Below, piece after piece: positions 3,175 to 25,946 of a stretch of DNA of 26,008 nucleotides (position 1 is its first letter; each line of letters starts with the position of its first letter). Both the position numbers and the translations under genes were made by a program. The notes beneath the pieces were generated by a model, which saw nothing but the letters and a program-made list of their open reading frames with translations, had not been told where the DNA came from and made no database searches. Origin of the DNA: Aerosakkonema funiforme BLCC-F2. GTDB lineage: Bacteria > Cyanobacteriota > Cyanobacteriia > Cyanobacteriales > Aerosakkonemataceae. The DNA lies in assembly GCF_041929185.1 (NCBI RefSeq), contig NZ_JBHFNO010000043.1. The stretch is one strand, 5' to 3'.

Positions 3175-3876
3175 TTGTTTGATAGTAGGATCTTAGTTAA
3201 GGAATTGTAGGTTGGGTTGACGCCAGGAAACCCAACACTACCCCCTTTATCTTCTTCCTCTTCTATAAGCGCTCTTCGCGTCTAATTCGCTATCGCGAAT
3301 CGCTTCGCTAAGGCGGTTCGTTAAAAAAGGGGGTAATCAACCCGGATTTAATATAATCCCTAACTATCCTAACCGAGTTTAGGCTAAAACGCGGGTAGTC
3401 TAGATTCGACTGGATAGTCGATCGCGCAAATACAGGCAGCATGGTGATTATTACTACATCAGATCGAGAGAAGTCTTTCCTGAAATCAAAAACCATATAG
3501 TGAAATTGTCAGATCCGAGTTTTTTGATGAGCTTGGCAAGGCTGAATAAACCGGGTTTCTCAACGTCAAATCTGGGCTTTCAAGGATAGTTGTAAGAAAC
3601 CCGGTTTCTGACTATGGTCGAACCTTCCGGAACTTTATTTAAAGGCTGCGAATCTTAGAACAGGATCGGCAAAAAATCAATTTTTTGCGAGCAATTCCAA
3701 TAGTCGAAAAGCCCTGAGCTAGGTATTGCGATTTAGCTCCTCATCTTAACTTTCCTGAGCTTTCAGCTTTAAAGGGGTTGAGTGCAAGCGTTTATTTAGA
3801 AACGTATTGCCTAAATTTTGCCGATCTATTTCTGGGCTAGTTTAACACCAAACTTAATTCCTTAAGGAGAACATTC

Positions 3877-9819: not shown

Positions 9820-9825
9820 GGTAAA

Positions 9826-9853
9826 GTCAAAAGTCAAAAGTCAAAAGTCAAAA
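9826..9853. repeat. STRR-like heptamer tandem repeat (GTCAAAA/TCAAAAG x4)
   Basis: gtcaaaagtcaaaagtcaaaagtcaaaag immediately after the stop of the Moco subunit. Confidence 0.7.
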
Positions 9854-9854
9854 G

Positions 9855-10202
9855 TAACCCACCGACACTTATCTCATCGTAGGGTGGGTTAGGCACGGGC
9901 AATAACTTCCACACTTTCAAGCAATAATTAACTCTCCGTGCCGTAACCCACCGACACTTATCTCATCGTAGGGTGGGTTAGGCACGGGCAATAACTTCCA
10001 CACTTTCAAGCAATAATTAACTCTCCGTGCCGTAACCCACCGACACTTATCTATAACATACATAAACACTTTAGCTCTTTCGGATTTATGGGTAAAAATG
10101 TTTGTTAATGTTACAGTTGAGTGTGATGGTGGGTTACGGCACGGGAACTAAATTATCGGTTGAAAGTTTTGAAATTATCGCCCGTGCCTAACCCACCCTA
10201 CG
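9855..10202. mobile_element. cluster of MITE-like hairpin elements: 89-bp unit x2.2 in direct orientation followed by one inverted copy; about 23-30 bp terminal inverted repeat CGTAGGGTGGGTTAGGCACGGGC(A/G)ATAA
   Basis: Unit ...CGTAGGGTGGGTTAGGCACGGGC-N37-CCGTGCCGTAACCCACC... starts at 9855, 9944 and 10033 (period 89). Reverse-complement copy 10128-10202 ends ...GCCCGTGCCTAACCCACCCTACG. The same family recurs at 24466-24978. Confidence 0.5.
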
Positions 10203-10227
10203 CTTAGATACTGGGCTGCTTTTACTC

Positions 10228-10836
10228 TTGCAGGGAATTGGTTATAATATGTCGATGATCGAACAAGCTGCTAATTCTGTGGTACTTGCTTCTGCTTCTA
10301 AGCCGTCTGCTACTGAGGTAGTCGATGCTTTGCTTCAGGCGGAGAAAGACGCCAGAAAGAACAATTTTTCTGATTCGTTCGATCGATTAATCGGCAATTG
10401 GCGTTTATGTTTTATTACCGGGACTAAAAAAACTCGCGCTAAGGCGGGAATTGTGCTGGGTGCGGGACGCTACATTCCTCAATTTGTCAAAATTGAATTG
10501 TCTTACTCGACTGCATCTGTAGAGATAGAAGAACAGAATTTTGAAGTCGGTCAAATTGAGAATCGGGTGACGATCGGAGCGCTAAAATTAGTGGTGAGCG
10601 GGCCTGCCAAATTTTTGCACAAGAAAAACATTTTGGCGTTTGACTTTACTCGCATGACGGTGCAGTTGTTGGGAGTGACGCTGTTTTCTGGATATATTCG
10701 TTCAGGTGAGGTGAAGTCAAAACAATTTTACCATGAAAGTGTGAGCAAGCAAGCGTTTTTTGCTTATTTTTTCATCACCGATAAGGCGATCGCAGCTAGA
10801 GGTAGAGGCGGCGGTTTGGCTATCTGGGGACGGTAA
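10228..10836 (+). CDS. PAP/fibrillin-family (plastid-lipid-associated protein-like) protein, tentative
   Basis: LIGNWRLCFITGT resembles the conserved L-x-G-x-W-x-L-x-Y-T-S fibrillin motif. C-terminal ITDKAIAARGRGGGLAIWGR resembles the fibrillin C-terminal R-x-x-RG-x-x-G...R signature. The start may be Met-8 or Met-10 (MSMIEQ). Recalled consensus, not searched. Confidence 0.45.
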   Translation: MQGIGYNMSMIEQAANSVVLASASKPSATEVVDALLQAEKDARKNNFSDSFDRLIGNWRLCFITGTKKTRAKAGIVLGAGRYIPQFVKIELSYSTASVEIEEQNFEVGQIENRVTIGALKLVVSGPAKFLHKKNILAFDFTRMTVQLLGVTLFSGYIRSGEVKSKQFYHESVSKQAFFAYFFITDKAIAARGRGGGLAIWGR

Positions 10837-10893
10837 ATGTTTGGCGGCGCTTCTGCGGTTAGTGTGGGATGGCGGAAACCCCACCCCCAACCC

Positions 10894-11050
10894 CTCCCCG
10901 TCCACGGGGAGGGGTGAAACAGGTGTAGGGGGAGGGGTGAAACAGGTGTAGGGGGAGGGGTGAAACAGGTTCGCGGGGAGGGGTGAAAGAGGTGTAGGGG
11001 GAGGGGTGAAACAGGTTCGCGGGGAGGGGTGAAAGAGAGAGGGGCTTCAG
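10894..11050. repeat. six tandem 23-bp G-rich units (AGGTGTAG/AGGTTCGC + GGGGAGGGGTGAAAC); first unit preserves a CTCCCCG-loop-GGGGAGGGGTGAAAC hairpin resembling the CRISPR repeat 3' half
   Basis: Units end at 10920, 10943, 10966, 10989, 11012 and 11035 (period 23). G-tracts GGGGAGGGG x6 on the + strand. Lies in the convergent gap between the fibrillin-like gene and the last gene of the cas operon. Confidence 0.8.
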
Positions 11051-11113
11051 GGGAAAATAAGAACTGGGAAAGAGCCGTTTTTGTTCGCGCACGGCAAAGT
11101 GCTGTCAAGATTG

Positions 11114-11734
11114 CTAATCAACGCATTTGACGCTTTTGATACTGCCATTTTTTAAGGCTGTTATTTTTACTTTTACGATCTGCCCTTGCTGGAGAGAACT
11201 CGCTTTTTTCGGTTCTTTTTCAGTCAATTTAATCGCGCCTAATATTTGATATGTCACTTTATTACCTGCAATGCCAATAACTTGGGCATCTAAGATTTGA
11301 TCGATCGCAAAATCTTGAGATTGCGTCACTTGTAAAATTTCGGCTTGCCGAGTAGATTCTATGACAGGAGCGGTAATTTCGCCGATCGGTCCCGCTTCTT
11401 TGTAGTAGCGCATTAAGCGAATTGACCACCCTAAAATTTGCAGGATAGCTGTTACATCATTTTGATAAAGTTGCAAATATTTGGTGCAAGTTCTTTCTAT
11501 GCTATCATAATATCCAGATGTTTTTTGGCTATATCCGATTCTATTACCTTGGCGGGAAAGTGTTTGCAGATAACTAAAAAATTTCGTGCCGGCATTTTCG
11601 CGATCGCTATAAGCGCGAAGATATGCCATCACTTTACCCAATTCATTTACATCAGTCTCTTCTTTGACCAATGTTTGAGCAATTCCGTGAGCAATTTGCC
11701 ATTGAATTTCGGTTAAATCGGTGGTAGTAAACAT
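11114..11734 (-). CDS. hypothetical protein, terminal gene of the type III operon (alpha-helical N-terminal half, Lys/Val-rich beta-rich C-terminal tail)
   Basis: 206 aa. Start abuts the stop of the upstream RAMP gene (11735), implying co-transcription. No recognisable motif; N-half resembles small alpha-helical Cas11-type subunits only in composition. Confidence 0.55.
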   Translation of the reverse strand: MFTTTDLTEIQWQIAHGIAQTLVKEETDVNELGKVMAYLRAYSDRENAGTKFFSYLQTLSRQGNRIGYSQKTSGYYDSIERTCTKYLQLYQNDVTAILQILGWSIRLMRYYKEAGPIGEITAPVIESTRQAEILQVTQSQDFAIDQILDAQVIGIAGNKVTYQILGAIKLTEKEPKKASSLQQGQIVKVKITALKNGSIKSVKCVD

Positions 11735-15140: not shown

Positions 15141-15707
15141 TCAATTTAAACTCAACCAGCTAAACACATCTTGCGCGGATAACTGTAAATCTTCCAGAGA
15201 ACTTAACACGGGTAAATTGTCTTGATTTTCCTTAGTTTCTGGTTGTTGACCTGGACGAAAAACCATGATAATTTTCTCTTCAGGATCGATTAACCAGCCT
15301 AATTCTGTTCCCGCATTTAAACAAAAAAGGATGTTACCAATCACGCGAGTTGAGCTTTGTTCTGGGGAAAGAATTTCAATTACCCAATCTGGATGAATGG
15401 AAAAAGAATTTTCGATTTCGCCGTTAGCATCTAAAGGGATACGTTGCCAAGAAAAAACGCTGATATCTGGCACAATTGAACGACCGCCAAAGGTGCAACG
15501 CAATTCTGTAAAAGCACTAGCTAAACGATTAGGTTCGCCTACCCTATTAATTTCGGTTGAGAAGCGAGTTTGCAATCGGCTATGTTTTCCTTTTGGCATA
15601 GGTTTTTGATAGATTTGTCCGTCTATATATTCACTAGCTGGTTTAGTTTCTGGGAGTTGCAGAAATTCGGCTAATGATATTTTGGTGGAAAGTTTTGTGG
15701 ATGTCAT
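15141..15707 (-). CDS. Uma2-family (DUF820) PD-(D/E)xK endonuclease inserted inside the type III effector operon
   Basis: 188 aa. Hallmark Uma2 motifs LAEFLQLPE...EYIDGQI (N-terminal) and VPDISV...PDWVIEILSPEQS (PD...EIxSP core). 29-nt and 14-nt gaps to the flanking csm2 and csm3 genes on the same strand. Confidence 0.75.
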   Translation of the reverse strand: MTSTKLSTKISLAEFLQLPETKPASEYIDGQIYQKPMPKGKHSRLQTRFSTEINRVGEPNRLASAFTELRCTFGGRSIVPDISVFSWQRIPLDANGEIENSFSIHPDWVIEILSPEQSSTRVIGNILFCLNAGTELGWLIDPEEKIIMVFRPGQQPETKENQDNLPVLSSLEDLQLSAQDVFSWLSLN

Positions 15708-15736: not shown

Positions 15737-16144
15737 TTACTTGGAATTGATGTATTTCAAGTATCGAGCGCCATACCCCAAGTAGCGGCGAATTAATTCT
15801 AACCAAATAGATTTGAAATCAGAACCAGAAATTTCTTTGTGAATAACATTAGCTTTCTGCTTGATTTGAGTATCAATATCATTGACAATTTTTGCTGCTA
15901 ATGAATTGTCACCTCTTCCCCATTTCTTATCGCGCCCGACTTGATAGCGCAAGAAATTTTTAATCACTTCTGGGCTATCGGTTGTATCTGCAACGCGCAC
16001 TAAGTTGCGAAATTGAGTTTCTTGTAAGTCGCCATAGGATTGACGATTGTCTAAAGCTGCTTGAATCCATAACACTAAATCATCTTCAGCAAGACGGATG
16101 TTTTTTTGTACTTTGAGTTCTATCTGTTGTTCTGCTAGGTTCAT
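15737..16144 (-). CDS. csm2: Csm2 (Cas11) small subunit
   Basis: 135 aa, all-alpha composition. LQETQFRNLVRV matches the Csm2 LTTSQ(I/L)RK motif; NFLRYQVGRDKK and RRYLGYGARYLKY match the (V/F)xYQxGRE and C-terminal aromatic/Gly motifs of Csm2 (compared with the S. thermophilus Csm2 sequence recalled from memory). ATGA overlap with the upstream RAMP gene. Confidence 0.6.
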   Translation of the reverse strand: MNLAEQQIELKVQKNIRLAEDDLVLWIQAALDNRQSYGDLQETQFRNLVRVADTTDSPEVIKNFLRYQVGRDKKWGRGDNSLAAKIVNDIDTQIKQKANVIHKEISGSDFKSIWLELIRRYLGYGARYLKYINSK

Positions 16145-17376
16145 ACAGCGTTTTCCCGAAATACTAAATGAAATTCATTGCAAACCTGAACTTGACCGAA
16201 TCCTTCCGAAGTACGTTCCCCAACTCCTTTTAATTCTAAATTCCCTAATGCTCGATACCAAATGTCTGGCGAACTTGTACTAAACAAATACACGGCACCT
16301 TTATTGGTAACTAATTCTACATCTTTCATCAATCCCCATGCGGTATTCCAGCCAGAACGATAATCGTAGCTGGTATATGCAACGTGCAGTTTTAAAGAAG
16401 GGTCATCGATCGCAGCATACTTTTTCAACATTCTATCATTAATTACTGTGGTACGTTGCCAATTTTCAGTAAAAATGGCATCGGATTGTAAATCAATGGT
16501 GAAATAGGTGCGGTCTAATAGCAAATCTTGCTGGGTTTCGCCAAAGATTTCTCCCCACTTTTGCCATCTTTTTTTAAGTTCATCGTTAAACTTGGCGATC
16601 CGAGGTTCTACTGTCGCTGCGGCGTTACCTATGTCTGCGATAATTTCCGCTTTTCCTAATCCCCGCGATGCAGAACCACCCAATCGAAAAGAATGGCGAT
16701 TGATAAAATCAGTTAGGTTATTAGCTAATTCCTCATTGTCTAATAAAATTTTGCTGCGATAGGTAGCAGGTTCCTCTTTTCCTTCCACTTCATTTAATAC
16801 TTCAATGCTGTAAAGCACCTGTTCTTCAGAAGTGGCGCGACGGCGGTTGATACCGACTCGCGTTAGCAGTCGAGTCGTGGTTGAAAGTTGATAGTAATTG
16901 TTACCGACACAAGCATAAAAACCGCTATAAGGTTCTACTCTTCCACAGTCTACCGGACAATTTGGATCGTAAGGATGGTTGTAACCTCCGGCGCAAAAAC
17001 GATCGATCAACGTATCGAAGACACCGTGCTTTTTGGGATCTGTTTTAAAACCGGGATTGGTTTTAGAACTAACTGCTGTGGCGGGGAGTACCTGAATTGG
17101 ATTAGGTAGCAAGGTTGGTTTATCTTGAATTTTGGCGATCGCAGGATAACCATTCTGGAAAATTGCCGCATTTTCGCCTAAGAATAAGCTGTGGAAGTCG
17201 TCACCTGCTTCTGGTGTGGGGGATTCAGATTCGCGGAGGATTCCAGATGCGATCGCACCCCTGATTACCGATGCGGGTATATAGCTTTCGGCTTCACTGA
17301 CGGAACCACCAGGCTTTTGTCGTCCAATGGCTAACGGTGAAGCTGCTGTAATTGTTAGTTGAATTTCGTAAGTCAT
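16141..17376 (-). CDS. Cas5-group RAMP (Csx10/Csm4-like large RAMP subunit)
   Basis: 411 aa. N-terminal LTITAASPLAIG...YIPASVIRGAIASGIL (Cas5/Csm4-type start) and C-terminal glycine loop GGSASRGLGKAEI. The size fits Csx10 of type III-D. Confidence 0.65.
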   Translation of the reverse strand: MTYEIQLTITAASPLAIGRQKPGGSVSEAESYIPASVIRGAIASGILRESESPTPEAGDDFHSLFLGENAAIFQNGYPAIAKIQDKPTLLPNPIQVLPATAVSSKTNPGFKTDPKKHGVFDTLIDRFCAGGYNHPYDPNCPVDCGRVEPYSGFYACVGNNYYQLSTTTRLLTRVGINRRRATSEEQVLYSIEVLNEVEGKEEPATYRSKILLDNEELANNLTDFINRHSFRLGGSASRGLGKAEIIADIGNAAATVEPRIAKFNDELKKRWQKWGEIFGETQQDLLLDRTYFTIDLQSDAIFTENWQRTTVINDRMLKKYAAIDDPSLKLHVAYTSYDYRSGWNTAWGLMKDVELVTNKGAVYLFSTSSPDIWYRALGNLELKGVGERTSEGFGQVQVCNEFHLVFRENAV

Positions 17377-17378
17377 TC

Positions 17379-17411
17379 GATTTTGGATTTTAGATTTTGG
17401 ATTTTGGATTG
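17379..17411. repeat. STRR-like heptamer tandem repeat (GATTTTG x4) in the 51-bp gap between two cas genes
   Basis: gattttggattttagattttggattttggatt read directly. Confidence 0.6.
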
Positions 17412-18245: not shown

Positions 18246-20774
18246 TTAAGTAGATAAATTGTCGCCCGAATGCTTCGCCCCTACATTTAACCTATCTGTA
18301 TCTTGAATTTTGGCGTCAAGGGTTTGCGAAACTTCGATAAAAGGATAAAGGTCTACTAACTCGCGCCAAATAGTTTCGTAAGTGGACTTTTTTAATAAGT
18401 TTAAAATCACACTTTGTAACTGAACTTGACTGGTTGGTAAAAGTTTTAAGGAAAACATTAGAACTACTTTCCTGAAGATTCCAGCCTTCTCAAAAAGCCA
18501 AGGGGCTAAGTAACCATCATTTGTTGCTGCTTGACACCAAGCATCCTCAAAATTTTCTTTTAGTAACTGTTGTTCTTTTGAACCCAAACGCACGCGGAAA
18601 TAACGATAGTTGAGGATGGCGGTGTTTTTGCCTCGTTCCAGTAAACTGCGAATTTGATAGAGTTGCGATCGCGGAAATCCCGACTGTTTTATTGCTTTGG
18701 CTGTTTCCAGCAGTCCGCCTAGTTCATGCAGCGTGTAAGGTGCAGCATGAAGTTTGAGTTTTTGGTTATCTTTGATCGATTTGGTTAAACCTTCTCGGCG
18801 GAACGAACTGATATTTGATGATATCATTGTAACTGATTTCATCACCAAAAAGTCAACCGTACCGCCATAATAATGATAGTGTTTTTTCAACTCTTTAGCA
18901 CGCGCTTTCGCAGATTTGAGTAACTGTTCCGTTAATTTTTGAGCGTAATAAATCGGCGTGGTGTAGGCGGTAATCAAAACACCGATCGACATACTCAATT
19001 GACATTCGGAGGGGTTCTGTGGCGGCGGTTGGTAACGATGACAGGCGATTGATTTCGCATCATCTCGCTGGGATGCGGGAATTTCATATCTTTTTCCTAA
19101 ATCAGTTAATCGCTTCTCGAATTCTTCACCGATCGTTTGCGCGATCGCCAATGCTTTATCTGCTGGTACAATCAGCAATACATCGTCACCGCCAATAGTT
19201 AAAATTTCAAAGGGATGAATGACAACACCATTTCGATGTTGATGTTCTTTTCCAGTTAAGCCACTTAACCGATGGGGCTTTAGATGCGTGAGAGCTTCAT
19301 AAACTGAATTTTCCGTTGCATCGAAAATATCTTCACTAAACTGAGCGTAATCCGCTGGAGTTTTAATCTTTTGGATGTAGCCACCCATATTGTTACCATC
19401 TGCATAAATGTAAGCAACAAATCCATTGCTAGCATTGCCGATTTCTGTGAGCGATCGCGCTTGCTGAATTCCGCTATTGCTAAAACCTGCGTAATATTTG
19501 CGCCAACGTTCTAACTTGAGTAAAAACCGCTCAAACTTATTGACCCAACTTTCTACTTCTCCGGGTTGCCATTCAAGTTTTGTGCGTTCGTACCATTCTC
19601 GTTCTTGTTCTTCCTTCGAGATTTGACCTATTATTCGCTTACGCGCTAACGCTTCCGAAAACCAAGGTTCGTTGGGAAGCTCAGTCGCATGAAAAATAGC
19701 AGAACGGCAATCCCCTTCATCCCTTTTCAAGTAAGGATGAGTATCAAAAATCGGCGGGTAGCAACGGCTGGGACGTTCTGAACCAGGTAAATCGTTACCG
19801 CTGCGTCGGTGATTAAATTGTGCGGCTAATTTACCTGCTAATTCGTTAAAACTTTTGCGATTATTAAATAATTCTCCCCAATTTTCTTCTCCTTCTAAGC
19901 TACCGAAGTAAGCTTTTACTAAATCATTGTTGCGATTTTTTTCGTGATTGTTGCGATTTTTTTCGTACCAATCTAGCCAGAGTGTTTGTTCAATTGGATC
20001 GCGCAGCAACCCAAAACGCACTTCTAGTAATTTGAAGCTATCCCCAACAGCACAAGAGTTAGCCGTTAAAGTTTGTTCGGTATAACGCCGTTCAATCGCA
20101 TTCGCTAAATCGTCGATGTAAGCAGCAGGACAAAATGCGAGGATATTACCACCCGTTGAATAGATTATCAGTTCTGGGATGAGAGCATCTGAAAGCTTGA
20201 GATTATCTGCATCACCGGGAAAGCAGTTATCTAACCACTGTTTTACTTCTTCGCAGTGTGCTGTGTAACGGGGAGACTCTGGCGGTTTTCCGAAAAAAGC
20301 GGGTAAGTCGATCAGATTGATTCGATCGAGTAGTGCAGAAGCACCCCGGATGTCTTGCAGCTTAGCCGCTTCAAAAACGTAACCTTTAATTTTGGTAGCA
20401 CCGCCATAAACTAAGCCGATGGGAGTATTCCACGCTTGAGGATTTTCCCGTTGCAAGGCTTCAAAGGTTTGACGTAGTTTTTCAGCGGTGTCTGGAAACT
20501 TCAGGTTATCGATTTTTTGCGCTTGTTCTAGAAATGGTTGAATTGCAGCTGGAATACTTTTTCCTTCTTTGAGAGTCTGTTTAATTGTCTGCAACTCGGA
20601 TAGGTCGAACAGAGGTGTGGGTCGATCGCCCCAGGCGAGACACCAAGCGATTCCTATCGAAAGCTTCGTTGATATTGTCATCATACCATTTTGCAAAGTT
20701 TTCACTCTAAAGGACTTTTTTCCAAATCTGGGTAATGCCAACATTCCCAAACTCTTTGCTGTATTTTGACACAC
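18246..20774 (-). CDS. cas10: Cas10 (Csm1/Cmr2-type large subunit) with intact GGDD cyclase palm motif and no recognisable N-terminal HD nuclease motif
   Basis: 842 aa as listed. The start at 20774 is GTG; alternative ATG starts lie at residues 11 and 31. Palm motifs AYIYADGNNMGG and ILTIGGDDVLLIVPAD, Cys cluster, GASALLDRI. The first 150 residues contain no H-D dyad in HD-domain context. Confidence 0.85.
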   Translation of the reverse strand: MCQNTAKSLGMLALPRFGKKSFRVKTLQNGMMTISTKLSIGIAWCLAWGDRPTPLFDLSELQTIKQTLKEGKSIPAAIQPFLEQAQKIDNLKFPDTAEKLRQTFEALQRENPQAWNTPIGLVYGGATKIKGYVFEAAKLQDIRGASALLDRINLIDLPAFFGKPPESPRYTAHCEEVKQWLDNCFPGDADNLKLSDALIPELIIYSTGGNILAFCPAAYIDDLANAIERRYTEQTLTANSCAVGDSFKLLEVRFGLLRDPIEQTLWLDWYEKNRNNHEKNRNNDLVKAYFGSLEGEENWGELFNNRKSFNELAGKLAAQFNHRRSGNDLPGSERPSRCYPPIFDTHPYLKRDEGDCRSAIFHATELPNEPWFSEALARKRIIGQISKEEQEREWYERTKLEWQPGEVESWVNKFERFLLKLERWRKYYAGFSNSGIQQARSLTEIGNASNGFVAYIYADGNNMGGYIQKIKTPADYAQFSEDIFDATENSVYEALTHLKPHRLSGLTGKEHQHRNGVVIHPFEILTIGGDDVLLIVPADKALAIAQTIGEEFEKRLTDLGKRYEIPASQRDDAKSIACHRYQPPPQNPSECQLSMSIGVLITAYTTPIYYAQKLTEQLLKSAKARAKELKKHYHYYGGTVDFLVMKSVTMISSNISSFRREGLTKSIKDNQKLKLHAAPYTLHELGGLLETAKAIKQSGFPRSQLYQIRSLLERGKNTAILNYRYFRVRLGSKEQQLLKENFEDAWCQAATNDGYLAPWLFEKAGIFRKVVLMFSLKLLPTSQVQLQSVILNLLKKSTYETIWRELVDLYPFIEVSQTLDAKIQDTDRLNVGAKHSGDNLST

Positions 20775-21725: not shown

Positions 21726-21737
21726 TGTATAGTTAAA

Positions 21738-21929
21738 CAAAAACCTAAAAACTCCCCGTAAGGGGATTGAAACTCGCTCTTTCAGTGCTGACACACTTGT
21801 CGAGTCAGTGTTCAATACTTCCCCGCAAGGGGACTAAAACCTCAAAACTATTGCACAGTGCTTATTGCTAAGTAAACCAGCGATCGGCTACTACCCCTTG
21901 CTGGAAAAGGGGCAGTAGCTTATGAAAGC
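21738..21929 (+). CRISPR. decayed CRISPR mini-array: two recognisable repeats with one 31-nt spacer (period 67) plus a third strongly degenerate repeat-like hairpin
   Basis: R1 ...AACTCCCCGTAAGGGGATTGAAAC ends at 21773. R2 ...ACTTCCCCGCAAGGGGACTAAAAC ends at 21840. R3-like CTACCCCTTGCTGGAAAAGGGGCAGTAGCTTATGAAAGC ends at 21929. Conserved CCCCG-NN-GGGG hairpin plus (A/C)TTGAAAC 3' handle, as in cyanobacterial type III-associated repeats (recalled). An isolated ATTGAAAC also occurs at 21678. Confidence 0.6.
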
Positions 21930-21974
21930 TTTGTTCTGGTGTGTCGGCTTATTCCCCAAATGGGGACGGAAAGA

Positions 21975-24089: not shown

Positions 24090-24446
24090 ATGTCAGCCAT
24101 TCAATTACAACTGTTTCGGGAGCAAACCCAGTCAGGTCTGACCTACCAACACCTGCACATCCAAATCAATACACCGGATGGACTGATTGCACCAGCCGAC
24201 CTGAAAAATTTATCCCTACCGGAGGAAATGGTCTGGAGTCAAGGCGTTGTCATTGAAGGTAAAGCGCCAATTTGGTTGTACGCCTATTTAGTTCACGCTT
24301 GTCACCCCGCCGCTTGGGTAGCTTGCTTCGACCCCCGCTTAGAAGGTGCAGTTATAATTGCTACACACAGTCGCCAAGTCGCACTCGGAGATATTCTCAA
24401 ACTCAACTTACCCGCAGCCATATTTCGCAAAACAACAGGTACGTAG
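24090..24446 (+). CDS. csx3: Csx3/Crn3-like cyclic-oligoadenylate ring nuclease (stand-alone, catalytic His/Asp/His pattern present)
   Basis: 118 aa, the size of stand-alone Csx3. GKAPIWLYAYLVHACHPAAWVACFDPRLEGAVIIATHSRQVALGD has H-(+9)-D-(+12)-H spacing similar to the His60/Asp69/His80 Mn site of A. fulgidus Csx3 (numbers recalled, not checked). Adjacent to type III genes; has a paralog at 25014. Confidence 0.5.
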   Translation: MSAIQLQLFREQTQSGLTYQHLHIQINTPDGLIAPADLKNLSLPEEMVWSQGVVIEGKAPIWLYAYLVHACHPAAWVACFDPRLEGAVIIATHSRQVALGDILKLNLPAAIFRKTTGT

Positions 24447-24465
24447 TGATAATAAAAACTTATTA

Positions 24466-24978
24466 ATCGTAGGGTGGGTTAGGCACGGGCAATAATTTCA
24501 ATACTTTCGATCGATAATTAAGTTCCCGTGCCGTAACCCACCATCCCACCTACCTGTAACATTGACAAACATTTTCCACCATAAACCCTCTAGACCCGAA
24601 GATTGTACCCTATCAACCCAAAAGAACCAAGCGTTAAAACGCAACAACATACGAAGGTCTGTAAATCTAGCTCTTTCAAGTTTATGCTTCGCTTTTGTAA
24701 CAGACAATTGTGATGGTGGGTTACGGCACGGACAGTTAATTATTAGTTTTTTGAGAGAAATTATCGCCCGTGCCTAACCCACCCTACAGGTTACAAAAAG
24801 CTATCAACCCAAAAGAACCAAGCGTTAAAACGCAACAACATACGAAGGTCTGTAAATCTAGCTCTTTCAAGTTTTTGGTTCGCTTTTGTAACAGAAAATT
24901 GTGATGGTGGGTTACGGCACGGACAGTTAATTATTAGTTTTTTGAGAGAAATTATCGCCCGTGCCTAACCCACCCTAC
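24466..24978. mobile_element. second cluster of the same MITE-like hairpin family: one forward copy, then a 191-bp unit duplicated in tandem, each ending in an inverted copy
   Basis: Forward end ATCGTAGGGTGGGTTAGGCACGGGCAATAAT at 24466-24542. Reverse ends ...ATTATCGCCCGTGCCTAACCCACCCTAC at 24715-24786 and 24906-24977. CTATCAACCC... unit starts at 24610 and 24801. Internal segment (TAGCTCTTTC...GTAACAG...TGTGATGGTGGGTT) is homologous to the left cluster at 10060-10135. Confidence 0.5.
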
Positions 24979-25013: not shown

Positions 25014-25946
25014 ATGAATACGATCGCCTTACAAAAACAAGTTGAACTGCAAGTCACCGAACTGAAAACCGCACAAGGAAGTTATCAAACTTTGGCGATT
25101 AGCTTAGTGATGTTCCAGGAACTAATAAAAACTGATGTACTCGCACAATTGAAACTTCCTGACGAACTAGACTTGAGCAGAGAAGTAATTTTATACGGTA
25201 TAGCTCCTACTTGGTTGTATGCCAATTTAGTAGAACGCTGTTGGCAAGCGCCTTGGATAGGATGCTATACAGCGCCAAAAAATCAAATTGTTGTAATTCA
25301 AAGTCGGATATCAACAATAAGTATAGGCGATGCGATACCTGTATTGCTTAACAACATTCCTTGTCCGGCAATTTTAATAGGTGGTTCGCCTGACAGCGGC
25401 AAAAGCGTTTTATCGAATGCTTTGCGTTTTAATTTGATGAAAACCGGAGCATTCAAACGAGTATTTGTACATCGCGCTTCTTGGGATGGTGAGGGAAATT
25501 GGGTTTACGAAGTAGCGAATCGGGATTTAGCTAAAAAGCTGATTGTAGAAAACGAGTTTCGATTGCACGAAAATCCCGAAACGGCGAAGTTAATACCGAA
25601 ATTCTTTAAATATCATAGCTCGGCGGTACAGAATTTGCGGGAAGTTGTCGATTTGGTTTTGGTTGATGTGGGTGGTAAACCGCAGCAAGAGAAAGCGCCT
25701 CTGGTCGCACAATGTACGCACTATATAATTATTAGTAAAGAATCAGATGAGATTCCCAAATGGCACGAGCTTTGTCATCCAACTTTGCAGCCGTTAACGG
25801 TGATTCACAGCGTCCGACAAAAACGAGAAGAAGTTTGGCAAAAACAACCTTTTTTGGAAATCATCGACGGACGCTGGTGCGAAGGTGAAATCCAGTCTGT
25901 TCCCGATATCTTGCTGGAAAATGTGCTTAGGGTTTTGCACGCCTAG
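25014..25946 (+). CDS. Csx3-like N-terminal domain (catalytic His residues substituted) fused to a P-loop NTPase domain
   Basis: 310 aa. N-terminal YGIAPTWLYANLVERCWQAPWIGCYTAPKNQIVVIQSRISTISIGD is clearly paralogous to the 24090 gene, but its His positions are E/W/R. Walker A GGSPDSGKSVLSNAL and Walker B-like LVLVDVGG. Confidence 0.5.
   Translation: MNTIALQKQVELQVTELKTAQGSYQTLAISLVMFQELIKTDVLAQLKLPDELDLSREVILYGIAPTWLYANLVERCWQAPWIGCYTAPKNQIVVIQSRISTISIGDAIPVLLNNIPCPAILIGGSPDSGKSVLSNALRFNLMKTGAFKRVFVHRASWDGEGNWVYEVANRDLAKKLIVENEFRLHENPETAKLIPKFFKYHSSAVQNLREVVDLVLVDVGGKPQQEKAPLVAQCTHYIIISKESDEIPKWHELCHPTLQPLTVIHSVRQKREEVWQKQPFLEIIDGRWCEGEIQSVPDILLENVLRVLHA

Follow-up and report, generated by a model that had tools for sequence, protein, structure and literature searches.

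Whether a tandem repeat that lies beside a cas operon is a CRISPR (short palindromic repeats, clustered and regularly interspaced) array in decay, or something else, is the question raised by a 26,008-nt stretch of the genome of the filamentous cyanobacterium Aerosakkonema funiforme BLCC-F2 (contig NZ_JBHFNO010000043.1), which in its whole length is called the window below. An array of G-rich 23-bp units (10906-11043, + strand) sits here in a 277-bp gap onto which the 3' ends of two convergent open reading frames (ORFs) face. One of them (10228-10836, +) is ORF202, which becomes ORF195 (195 aa) if it is counted from the likely true start, the ATG at 10249. The other (11114-11734, -) encodes a 206-aa protein and closes a type III-D effector operon as its last gene. 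A sequence-only reading had taken the array for either a collapsed second CRISPR array or an independent G-quadruplex (G4) forming element acting as a convergent terminator or insulator. The results described here suggest that the feature is probably a young, lineage-specific minisatellite, and neither a CRISPR array nor the remnant of one.

The array and the same junction in a close relative

By sequence inspection and Tandem Repeats Finder the array consists of six units of the form GGGGAGGGGTGAAA(C/G)AGG(TGTAG/TTCGC). The core GGGGAGGGGTGAAAC/G was found six times at exact 23-bp steps (10906, 10929, 10952, 10975, 10998 and 11021), against a chance expectation of 0.01 per window in whole-window shuffles, and two of the six cores end in GAAAG. 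Tandem Repeats Finder gave a period of 23 with 5.6 copies (score 205-234) and the higher-order periods 46 and 69. The 23-bp tandem array of the sequence-only reading is therefore real, and its five 8-nt "pseudo-spacers" were also counted as described: the 15-nt cores are separated by pieces of just two kinds, three copies of AGGTGTAG and two of AGGTTCGC. Array units 1 and 2 do not differ at any position, and units 5-6 repeat units 3-4 as a 46-bp duplicate, identical at 41 of 46 positions, with mismatches solely at the decaying right end. There the last core continues into AGAGAGGG, and the decayed edge reads AGAGAGGGGCTTCAGGGG. At the opposite end the first unit (10894-10920) reads CTCCCCGTCCACGGGGAGGGGTGAAAC, and the segment 10877-11043 can be written as AACCCCACCCCCAA-CCCCTCCCCG-TCCA-CGGGGAGGGG-TGAAACAGGTGTAG followed by five further 23-bp units. 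The arms CCCCTCCCCG and CGGGGAGGGG with the loop TCCA make up a perfect GC hairpin of 10-11 bp (10890-10915; predicted -25 kcal/mol as RNA on either strand), whose 3' arm doubles as the core of unit 1. In units 2-6 this hairpin is impossible, there being no C-run to pair with.

In Planktothrix sp. FACHB-1355 (contig L045), the closest relative available, the junction is built exactly as in the window, with the 206-aa gene and the ORF195 orthologue in convergent orientation and xanthine-dehydrogenase-type (XDH) genes beyond the latter. The ORF195 and XDH proteins are 97% identical between the two, and the flanking DNA is 92-96% identical. When window positions 10740-11200 (-) were aligned with positions 350-600 of L045, the intergenic gap of FACHB-1355 proved to be only ~60 bp long and to contain an intact hairpin, AACGGCT-TATTG-AGCCGTT followed by TTTT (-9.3 kcal/mol). 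The extra ~223 bp of the window (10849-11071), comprising the C-rich arm, the hairpin, the array and the decayed edges, fall at the 5-nt loop of this hairpin, where FACHB-1355 has TTATT instead. Remnants of the two stem halves are recognisable on both sides, GGCGGC on the left (10843-10848) and GAGCCGTTTTT, the remnant of the ancestral hairpin with its T-run, on the right (11072-11082). Presence versus absence of the block between close species is thus seen directly, and the alignment indicates that the whole block is specific to the Aerosakkonema lineage. Since FACHB-1355 has the same cas6-less junction without the block, the block post-dates the loss or absence of cas6 and the CRISPR array there.

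The comparison with more distant loci gave the same picture. In 13 related downstream regions (FACHB-1355 and 12 others; 11 with a type III-D operon) neither a tandem repeat nor a G4 tract of comparable kind was found, and the C4/G4-hairpin-plus-GAAAS motif was missing too. Type III-D function does not require the block. Two Logan contigs, from strains whose 206-aa protein is identical, likewise enter the array and break there. One of them, L003, differs after the second unit from the right, but at an ambiguous 31-mer branch of the de Bruijn assembly, and both end within the array. As evidence of strain polymorphism the Logan contigs (L002, L003 and L172) were rejected, all of them breaking at the repeats.

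These observations can be accommodated by the following course of events. A G-rich palindromic element, consisting of a C-run and then a CCCCTCCCC/GGGGAGGGG hairpin, would have landed in the loop of the terminator hairpin between the convergent genes. The 23 bp starting at the G-rich arm of this element would then have been multiplied in head-to-tail order, 23 or 46 bp at a time, through slippage during replication or through unequal recombination. We infer both the direction of the change (insertion and expansion here, not deletion in FACHB-1355) and the slippage or unequal-recombination mechanism of the expansion. Bacterial intergenic minisatellites (variable number tandem repeats) show the same properties: head-to-tail units of 10-100 bp, which are found here far beyond chance, a higher-order duplication (46 bp), identical neighbours, decayed edges, and a presence or absence that differs between close relatives. 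The unit differs from them in being unusually G-rich and hairpin-seeded. New, and mildly so, is only the hairpin-plus-G4 motif that seeded the array; an intergenic minisatellite is otherwise of a known kind.

Several points weigh against a young minisatellite. The decision between insertion and deletion rests on FACHB-1355 alone and on its intact hairpin, with no outgroup that has this junction, and no terminal inverted repeats or target-site duplication were found by alignment inspection at 10849/11071. Further copies of the 23-mer or of the hairpin may exist in the source genome. The hairpin has no T-run and was not called by the terminator scan, and canonical criteria therefore do not support a barrier role. 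Finally, CCCC-N2-7-GGGG-N0-6-GAAAS, for which whole-window shuffles predict 0.02 occurrences, was matched at three places in the window, one being unit 1 and the other two real CRISPR-type repeats; a distant CRISPR-repeat ancestry of unit 1 thus retains a residual possibility.

As an array, the feature is no common satellite. Two adjacent core units (gap 4-34 nt) were matched once in 185,579 species-representative genomes. This collection did not return the window's own locus (masked or absent), and the negative covers the source genome only if it is included. The single match, in the alphaproteobacterium Hwanghaeella, is a different 35-bp unit with a full hairpin, located among housekeeping genes. 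With any base allowed at the fifth core position, 35 heterogeneous loci were obtained from the metagenomes of the Joint Genome Institute (JGI), none of which has a window protein or HIP1 sites in common with the window. They were rejected as a family of this locus, being unrelated tandem repeats that merely contain GGGGNGGGGTGAAA twice. In the viral contigs no adjacent-core array was found, and a BLAST comparison of the block with a plasmid collection gave no match, although the low-complexity filter may mask the block; a 3-kb query matched only the Allocoleopsis III-D plasmid, via its cas genes. Rather than recurring at many unrelated loci, an outcome which the sequence-only reading had thought telling against its proposal, the array has practically no counterpart in the data searched, and the link to CRISPR is not rescued by this. 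A separate observation from one JGI metagenome set (Ga010505x, Ga0209390) concerns long degenerate 17-nt tandem arrays, GGGGYGGGGTGAAATCT, at loci L010-L012, L017, L019, L021-L023, L029, L030, L033, L042 and L043, which are unrelated to the window.

Other known kinds of repeat fit less well. Like the short tandemly repeated repetitive (STRR) heptamers, the array is an intergenic tandem repeat of the type common in filamentous cyanobacteria, and heptamer arrays are indeed found nearby (AAAGTCA and GATTTTG in the window, CTAGGGG/CCCTAAC hairpin arms in the neighbouring intergenic region of FACHB-1355); the period, however, is 23 and not 7, and the unit is not a known STRR sequence. A miniature inverted-repeat transposable element (MITE) was rejected because terminal inverted repeats and a target-site duplication are missing at the block ends. 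Iterons (direct repeats of 17-22 bp by a rep gene or AT-rich origin) were rejected as well, there being no rep gene in the window and the flanks consisting of chromosomal core genes. For the 114-aa ORF that spans the array on the - strand, no homologue was found among 5.8 billion proteins. A coding repeat (69 nt equal 23 aa) was dismissed for this reason, and since the base period of 23 is not a multiple of three.

Comparison with CRISPR arrays

The resemblance to a cyanobacterial type III-D array, the repeat of which is GTTTCAATAAACTTCCCC-N4-5-GGGGACGGAAAC, consists in the C4/G4 hairpin of unit 1 followed by ...GAAAC and in the convergence of the array with the effector operon. The sequence-only reading had likened unit 1 to the repeat core of a mini-array at 21735-21842 (+). 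This orphan mini-array comprises two diverged III-D-type repeats (...CTCCCCGTAAGGGGATTGAAAC and GTGTTCAATACTTCCCCGCAAGGGGACTAAAAC) around a spacer of ~36 nt, and a third repeat-like copy, TTCCCCAAATGGGGACGGAAAG, lies at 21950-21973, where it overlaps the 3' end of an HD-domain gene. Unit 1 does have the described sequence, but the quoted core occurs exactly once, its partner repeat CTTCCCCGCAAGGGGACTAAAAC having diverged. What had been said of the site was confirmed: the array lies beside the last gene of the operon, at its distal end, and its G-rich strand is, as in the mini-array (21752-21842), the + strand.

The proposal that the array is a collapsed second CRISPR array did not hold. Whereas a CRISPR array has repeats of ~23-55 nt with unique spacers of similar length between them, such spacers were not found here, the 8-nt "spacers" being invariant apart from their two versions. 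Nothing similar to the 5' half of the true repeat (GTTTCAATAAACTT) occurs in the array, and the units show no full-length homology to the repeat family. True repeats have a 4-bp stem and an 8-nt handle, whereas unit 1 offers either a 10-bp stem with 6 nt or a 4-bp stem with 11 nt. Judged by sequence geometry, moreover, a stem is present in unit 1 only, and not a Cas6-type stem with 8-nt handle in every repeat. Neither does the array co-occur with the cas operon, as it is missing from FACHB-1355 and the 12 other loci. In local alignments of the intergenic region with the window's own repeat, 112 of 500 dinucleotide shuffles scored as well, and with four other real repeats the numbers ranged from 29 to 323 of 500 (one of these four was what we take to be the Synechocystis CRISPR2 repeat). 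The similarity of the region to five real repeats is within the composition-matched null. CRISPR arrays decay by loss of whole repeat-spacer units, not by shrinkage to 23-bp units.

A less direct connection would be that a solo terminal repeat, left over from a degenerate CRISPR array, was expanded later. The organization of related loci speaks for this. On the Allocoleopsis franciscana plasmid pMIC7113.03 and on metagenome contigs L007-L009 the full module is kept at ~72% identity: behind the 206-aa gene come cas6 and a CRISPR-associated gene in convergent orientation and, where the contigs reach far enough, a genuine CRISPR array convergent with the operon and then cas2/cas1, the genuine 35-nt repeat being GTTTCAAT(T/A)AACTTCCCCTT(T/C)ACGGGGACGGAAAC. 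Downstream of the 206-aa gene and beyond cas6, a convergent array of analogous position and orientation is thus present in Allocoleopsis and L007; in other relatives unrelated genes follow the 206-aa gene. Unit 1 also has CTCCCCGT, GGGGA and TGAAAC in common with the mini-array repeat of the window, and the rarity of the hairpin-plus-GAAAS pattern has been mentioned above. The age of the block, however, which is younger than the loss of cas6 and the array, as FACHB-1355 shows no trace of it at the same junction, is hard to reconcile with such an origin. So are the missing 5' half, the distance of 6 or 11 nt instead of 8 between stem and repeat end, the shuffle results with the five repeats, and the fact that repeat-repeat recombination drops whole repeat-spacer units and does not produce 23-bp units. 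Taking all this into account, we consider a CRISPR remnant very unlikely. Still slightly lower is the probability that we assign to the GGGGAGGGGTGAAAC cores being tandem binding sites, as a decoy or regulatory element, for a Cas protein (Cas6, the WYL/TIGR03985 regulator or the 206-aa protein). Direct repeats about two helical turns apart do resemble arrays of protein-binding sites, and relatives carry motifs like the 3' half of the repeat, GGGGGACAGAAAC and AGGGGACGGAAAG, between the 206-aa gene and cas6. The window has no cas6, though, the element is conserved in no relative, and the motifs of the relatives lie, relative to the cas genes, on the opposite strand.

These motifs (L004 5830-6000, - strand; L007 6622-6802), which are on the cas-gene strand, may in their own loci be Cas6-binding or regulatory sites. 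For annotation, two cautions follow from the comparison. C4/G4 hairpins with GAAAC are not confined to CRISPR, and proximity to a cas operon is no ground for annotating a tandem repeat as an array or its remnant; comparison with one close relative settled the matter here.

The seed hairpin, the G-quadruplex potential and the barrier question

A source for the hairpin is suggested by a widely dispersed motif. On the - strand the sequence from 10914 down to 10877 reads CCCCTCCCC-GTGGAC-GGGGAGGGG-TTGGGGGTGGGG. The search pattern CCCCTCCCC-N3-8-GGGGAGGGG-N0-3-TGGGG, with 23 specified bases, has one exact match in the window (10885-10914, -), against 0.00 expected. In IMG/VR the viral or prophage contigs with this motif number more than 120, which is a lower bound. 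Among the matches listed, the consensus is CCCCTCCCC-TTCA-GGGGAGGGG-TTGGGG(G)TGGGG(G), and the motif is often arranged as inverted pairs (~110-nt palindromes) or lies within tandem repeats. The 21-nt string CCCCACCCCCAACCCCTCCCC of the window motif is found unchanged in viral contig L056, where two inverted copies (3413-3518) produce a palindrome of ~110 nt whose right half contains the string. In L102 (7090-7520) the motif is part of a 175-bp tandem repeat and its hairpin is followed by TGATGC or TGAAGC. The viral loci are L046-L125; the motif is further listed for L001 100-340, and L007 (11870-11912), a contig from a cyanobacterial metagenome, has a related copy close to cas2.

Judged by these matches, the hairpin with its C-rich arm appears either to have been copied from a G-rich palindromic motif that is very widespread or to resemble it by convergence. 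The "handle" resemblance of unit 1 is mostly accounted for by this, because GGGGAGGGG followed by TGA(A/T)GC also occurs in the dispersed motif, and the "GGGGAGGGG-TGA..." continuation seems not to be peculiar to CRISPR repeats. In its likeness to dispersed palindromes of the repetitive extragenic palindromic (REP) or MITE type, the window copy (10877-10914, -) matches CCCCTCCCC-loop-GGGGAGGGG-TTGGGG(G)TGGGG exactly, and in Hwanghaeella and L102 the motif is also found within tandem arrays. Most copies among the matches listed differ: their prophage or proteobacterial contigs are high in GC (median 0.69), their loop is TTCA, and a T-run often follows. A link of the dispersed motif to CRISPR was not found; the cas content of the viral contigs was outside the search, and the only genomic match checked is among housekeeping genes. 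In the searchable literature neither the motif strings nor a name for the motif could be found, and the core strings returned nothing relevant. In Rfam no family reached the gathering score anywhere in the window, permissive E-values yielding only generic hairpin (microRNA-like) noise.

The dispersed motif combines the hairpin with a perfect four-tract G4. For G4 prediction we required at least four G-tracts of at least three G with short loops, and a G4Hunter score of at least 1.5. The segment 10869-11053 satisfies these in-silico criteria and is the strongest and longest G4Hunter tract of the 26-kb window (|score| 2.84), in agreement with the strong G4 potential claimed by the sequence-only reading. 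It contains three canonical motifs on the + strand (loops of 1, 14 and 1 nt) and one on the - strand (10879-10899, GGGGAGGGGTTGGGGGTGGGG; loops of 1, 2 and 1 nt), and 12 G4 tracts were counted. Folding is predicted to give -105 kcal/mol with G4 allowed and -59.7 kcal/mol without. Candidate oligonucleotides for G4 formation are GGGGAGGGGTGAAACAGGTGTAGGGGGAGGGG and, for the - strand, GGGGAGGGGTTGGGGGTGGGG. The tract is also the most G-over-C-skewed 78-nt stretch in the window, and RNA transcribed from it on the - strand is predicted to have 51-57% C and 6-7% G.

With the small ancestral terminator presumably replaced by the block, the -25 kcal/mol hairpin would now be the chief structure where the convergent 3' ends meet. 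The consequence, if there is one, would be that the block takes over from the ancestral terminator as barrier between the convergent transcription units. Transcripts of ORF202 would meet the hairpin and a G4-prone, G-rich non-template strand; those of the cas operon would gain a 3' tail of ~150 nt with the C-rich, G-poor composition given above, resembling a Rho utilization (rut) site, and then the same hairpin. Like an intrinsic (Rho-independent) terminator, the block has a strong GC hairpin between convergent 3' ends, in place of a small T-run hairpin, but it lacks a U-tract on either strand, the hairpin being followed by TGAAAC on the + strand and by TTGGGGGTGG on the - strand. The hairpin is missed by the consensus terminator scan, which calls no terminator, because of this missing U-tract. 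Of the independent G4-forming element postulated by the sequence-only reading, the structural part was borne out, the G4 potential being very high and the seed coming from a dispersed motif, and the functional part was not. The role of convergent terminator or insulator is plausible but unproven; the hairpin has no T-run and fails the canonical intrinsic-terminator scan.

If the block had evolved as a functional G4/rut-like element, it would act as a strand-asymmetric terminator or insulator that keeps convergent read-through and antisense RNA away from the cas operon and ORF202. Rho is absent from cyanobacteria (PMC7665894), and rut-like signatures overlap 3' stem-loops in filamentous cyanobacteria (PMC13613805). 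The - strand transcript of the array fits the description of such signatures, and their presence near 3' stem-loops in Rho-less filamentous species favours this explanation, as do the top G4Hunter tract with three tandem canonical motifs, the gain in folding energy, and a location precisely where the convergent 3' ends meet and the terminator hairpin of the ancestor has been disrupted. Against it, a 19-nt hairpin is enough for the relative whose flanking proteins are 97% identical, the element is missing from every other III-D locus examined, there is no T-run, and the perfect identity of units speaks for a very recent expansion and not for a maintained function. We therefore regard a functional element of this kind as rather unlikely. 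A selected barrier function of the block is likewise improbable, a near-neutral young minisatellite being the default reading. More speculative still, and doubtful, is the wider idea that a newly evolved strand-asymmetric barrier in a Rho-less host (a rut-like tail and hairpin on the cas strand, three tandem G4 on the other) insulates a horizontally variable III-D island from the core genome beside it, and that the CCCCTCCCC/GGGGAGGGG-TTGGGGTGGGG motif is a general hairpin-versus-G4 switch which seeds barriers. Should the motif act as a structural switch or terminator module, the locus would be a dated example of an ordinary terminator that was replaced, with expansion thereafter. The block could also be a recombination hot spot or junction scar at a variable border of the defence island, where G4 or hairpin DNA stimulates exchange of cas cassettes. 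The array does lie at the border of core genes (96% nucleotide identity to FACHB-1355) and a cas gene (92% nucleotide, 88% amino acid identity), cassettes vary among strains with an identical last gene (Uma2 or Cas_APE2256), and MITE-like inverted repeats bracket the island. But the step in identity is modest and comes from only 440 nt, the junction exists without the block in FACHB-1355, and direct evidence of recombination end points is lacking, which makes a scar highly improbable.

Neighbouring genes and other repeats

The type III-D operon includes Cas10 (18246-20774), Csx10 (16141-17376), Csx7-type and other RAMP genes and an inserted Uma2 gene. To its right follow the mini-array, the third repeat-like copy, an HD protein, a WYL/TIGR03985 protein and two csx3 genes, and to the left of the array are the XDH-type core genes. 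Neither cas6 nor cas1 nor cas2 was found in the window. The 206-aa protein has 588 homologues and is conserved in cyanobacterial III-D loci. ORF202 has no match in Pfam or NCBIfam and is not a cas gene; descent from a cas gene that has diverged, or homology to the genes flanking arrays in relatives, was discarded for it, as tblastn found no similarity. The HIP1 octamer GCGATCGC is present 26 times in the window.

Repeats of other kinds are frequent between the genes. STRR-like AAAGTCA (4.7 copies, 9823-9855) lies just after the XDH gene, and GATTTTG (4.6 copies, 17379-17410) between csx10 and the upstream RAMP gene. MITE-like repeats are found on the left at 9854-10210 (89-bp unit, 2.2 tandem copies and an inverted partner) and on the right at 24444-24978 (191-bp unit, 1.9 copies). 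Arms of 138 nt at 10069-10206 and 24464-24601 are 85% complementary and enclose ORF202 and the whole III-D island. FACHB-1355 has no 89-bp repeats in its XDH/ORF195 intergenic region; in their place G-rich heptamer repeats (CTAGGGG, AGAGGGA) face a CCCTAAC-type arm in a long hairpin (L045 1095-1225). The 89-bp repeats in the window versus the heptamer arms in FACHB-1355 point to a rapid turnover of intergenic repeats, which appears to be routine in this lineage.

The Uma2-family gene inside the operon (15141-15707) encodes a putative restriction endonuclease; at its position strain L002 and more distant relatives have a Cas_APE2256 (CARF-type) gene instead, from which it follows that cassette content varies between strains with an identical last gene. 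Two csx3-domain genes (24090-24446 and 25014-25946) are parted by the 191-bp repeat pair, the product of the second being 310 aa long with an N-terminal Csx3 domain. Within cas10, a perfect 21-bp tandem duplication (19926-19966) is in frame and gives the protein sequence ...EKNRNNHEKNRNN...

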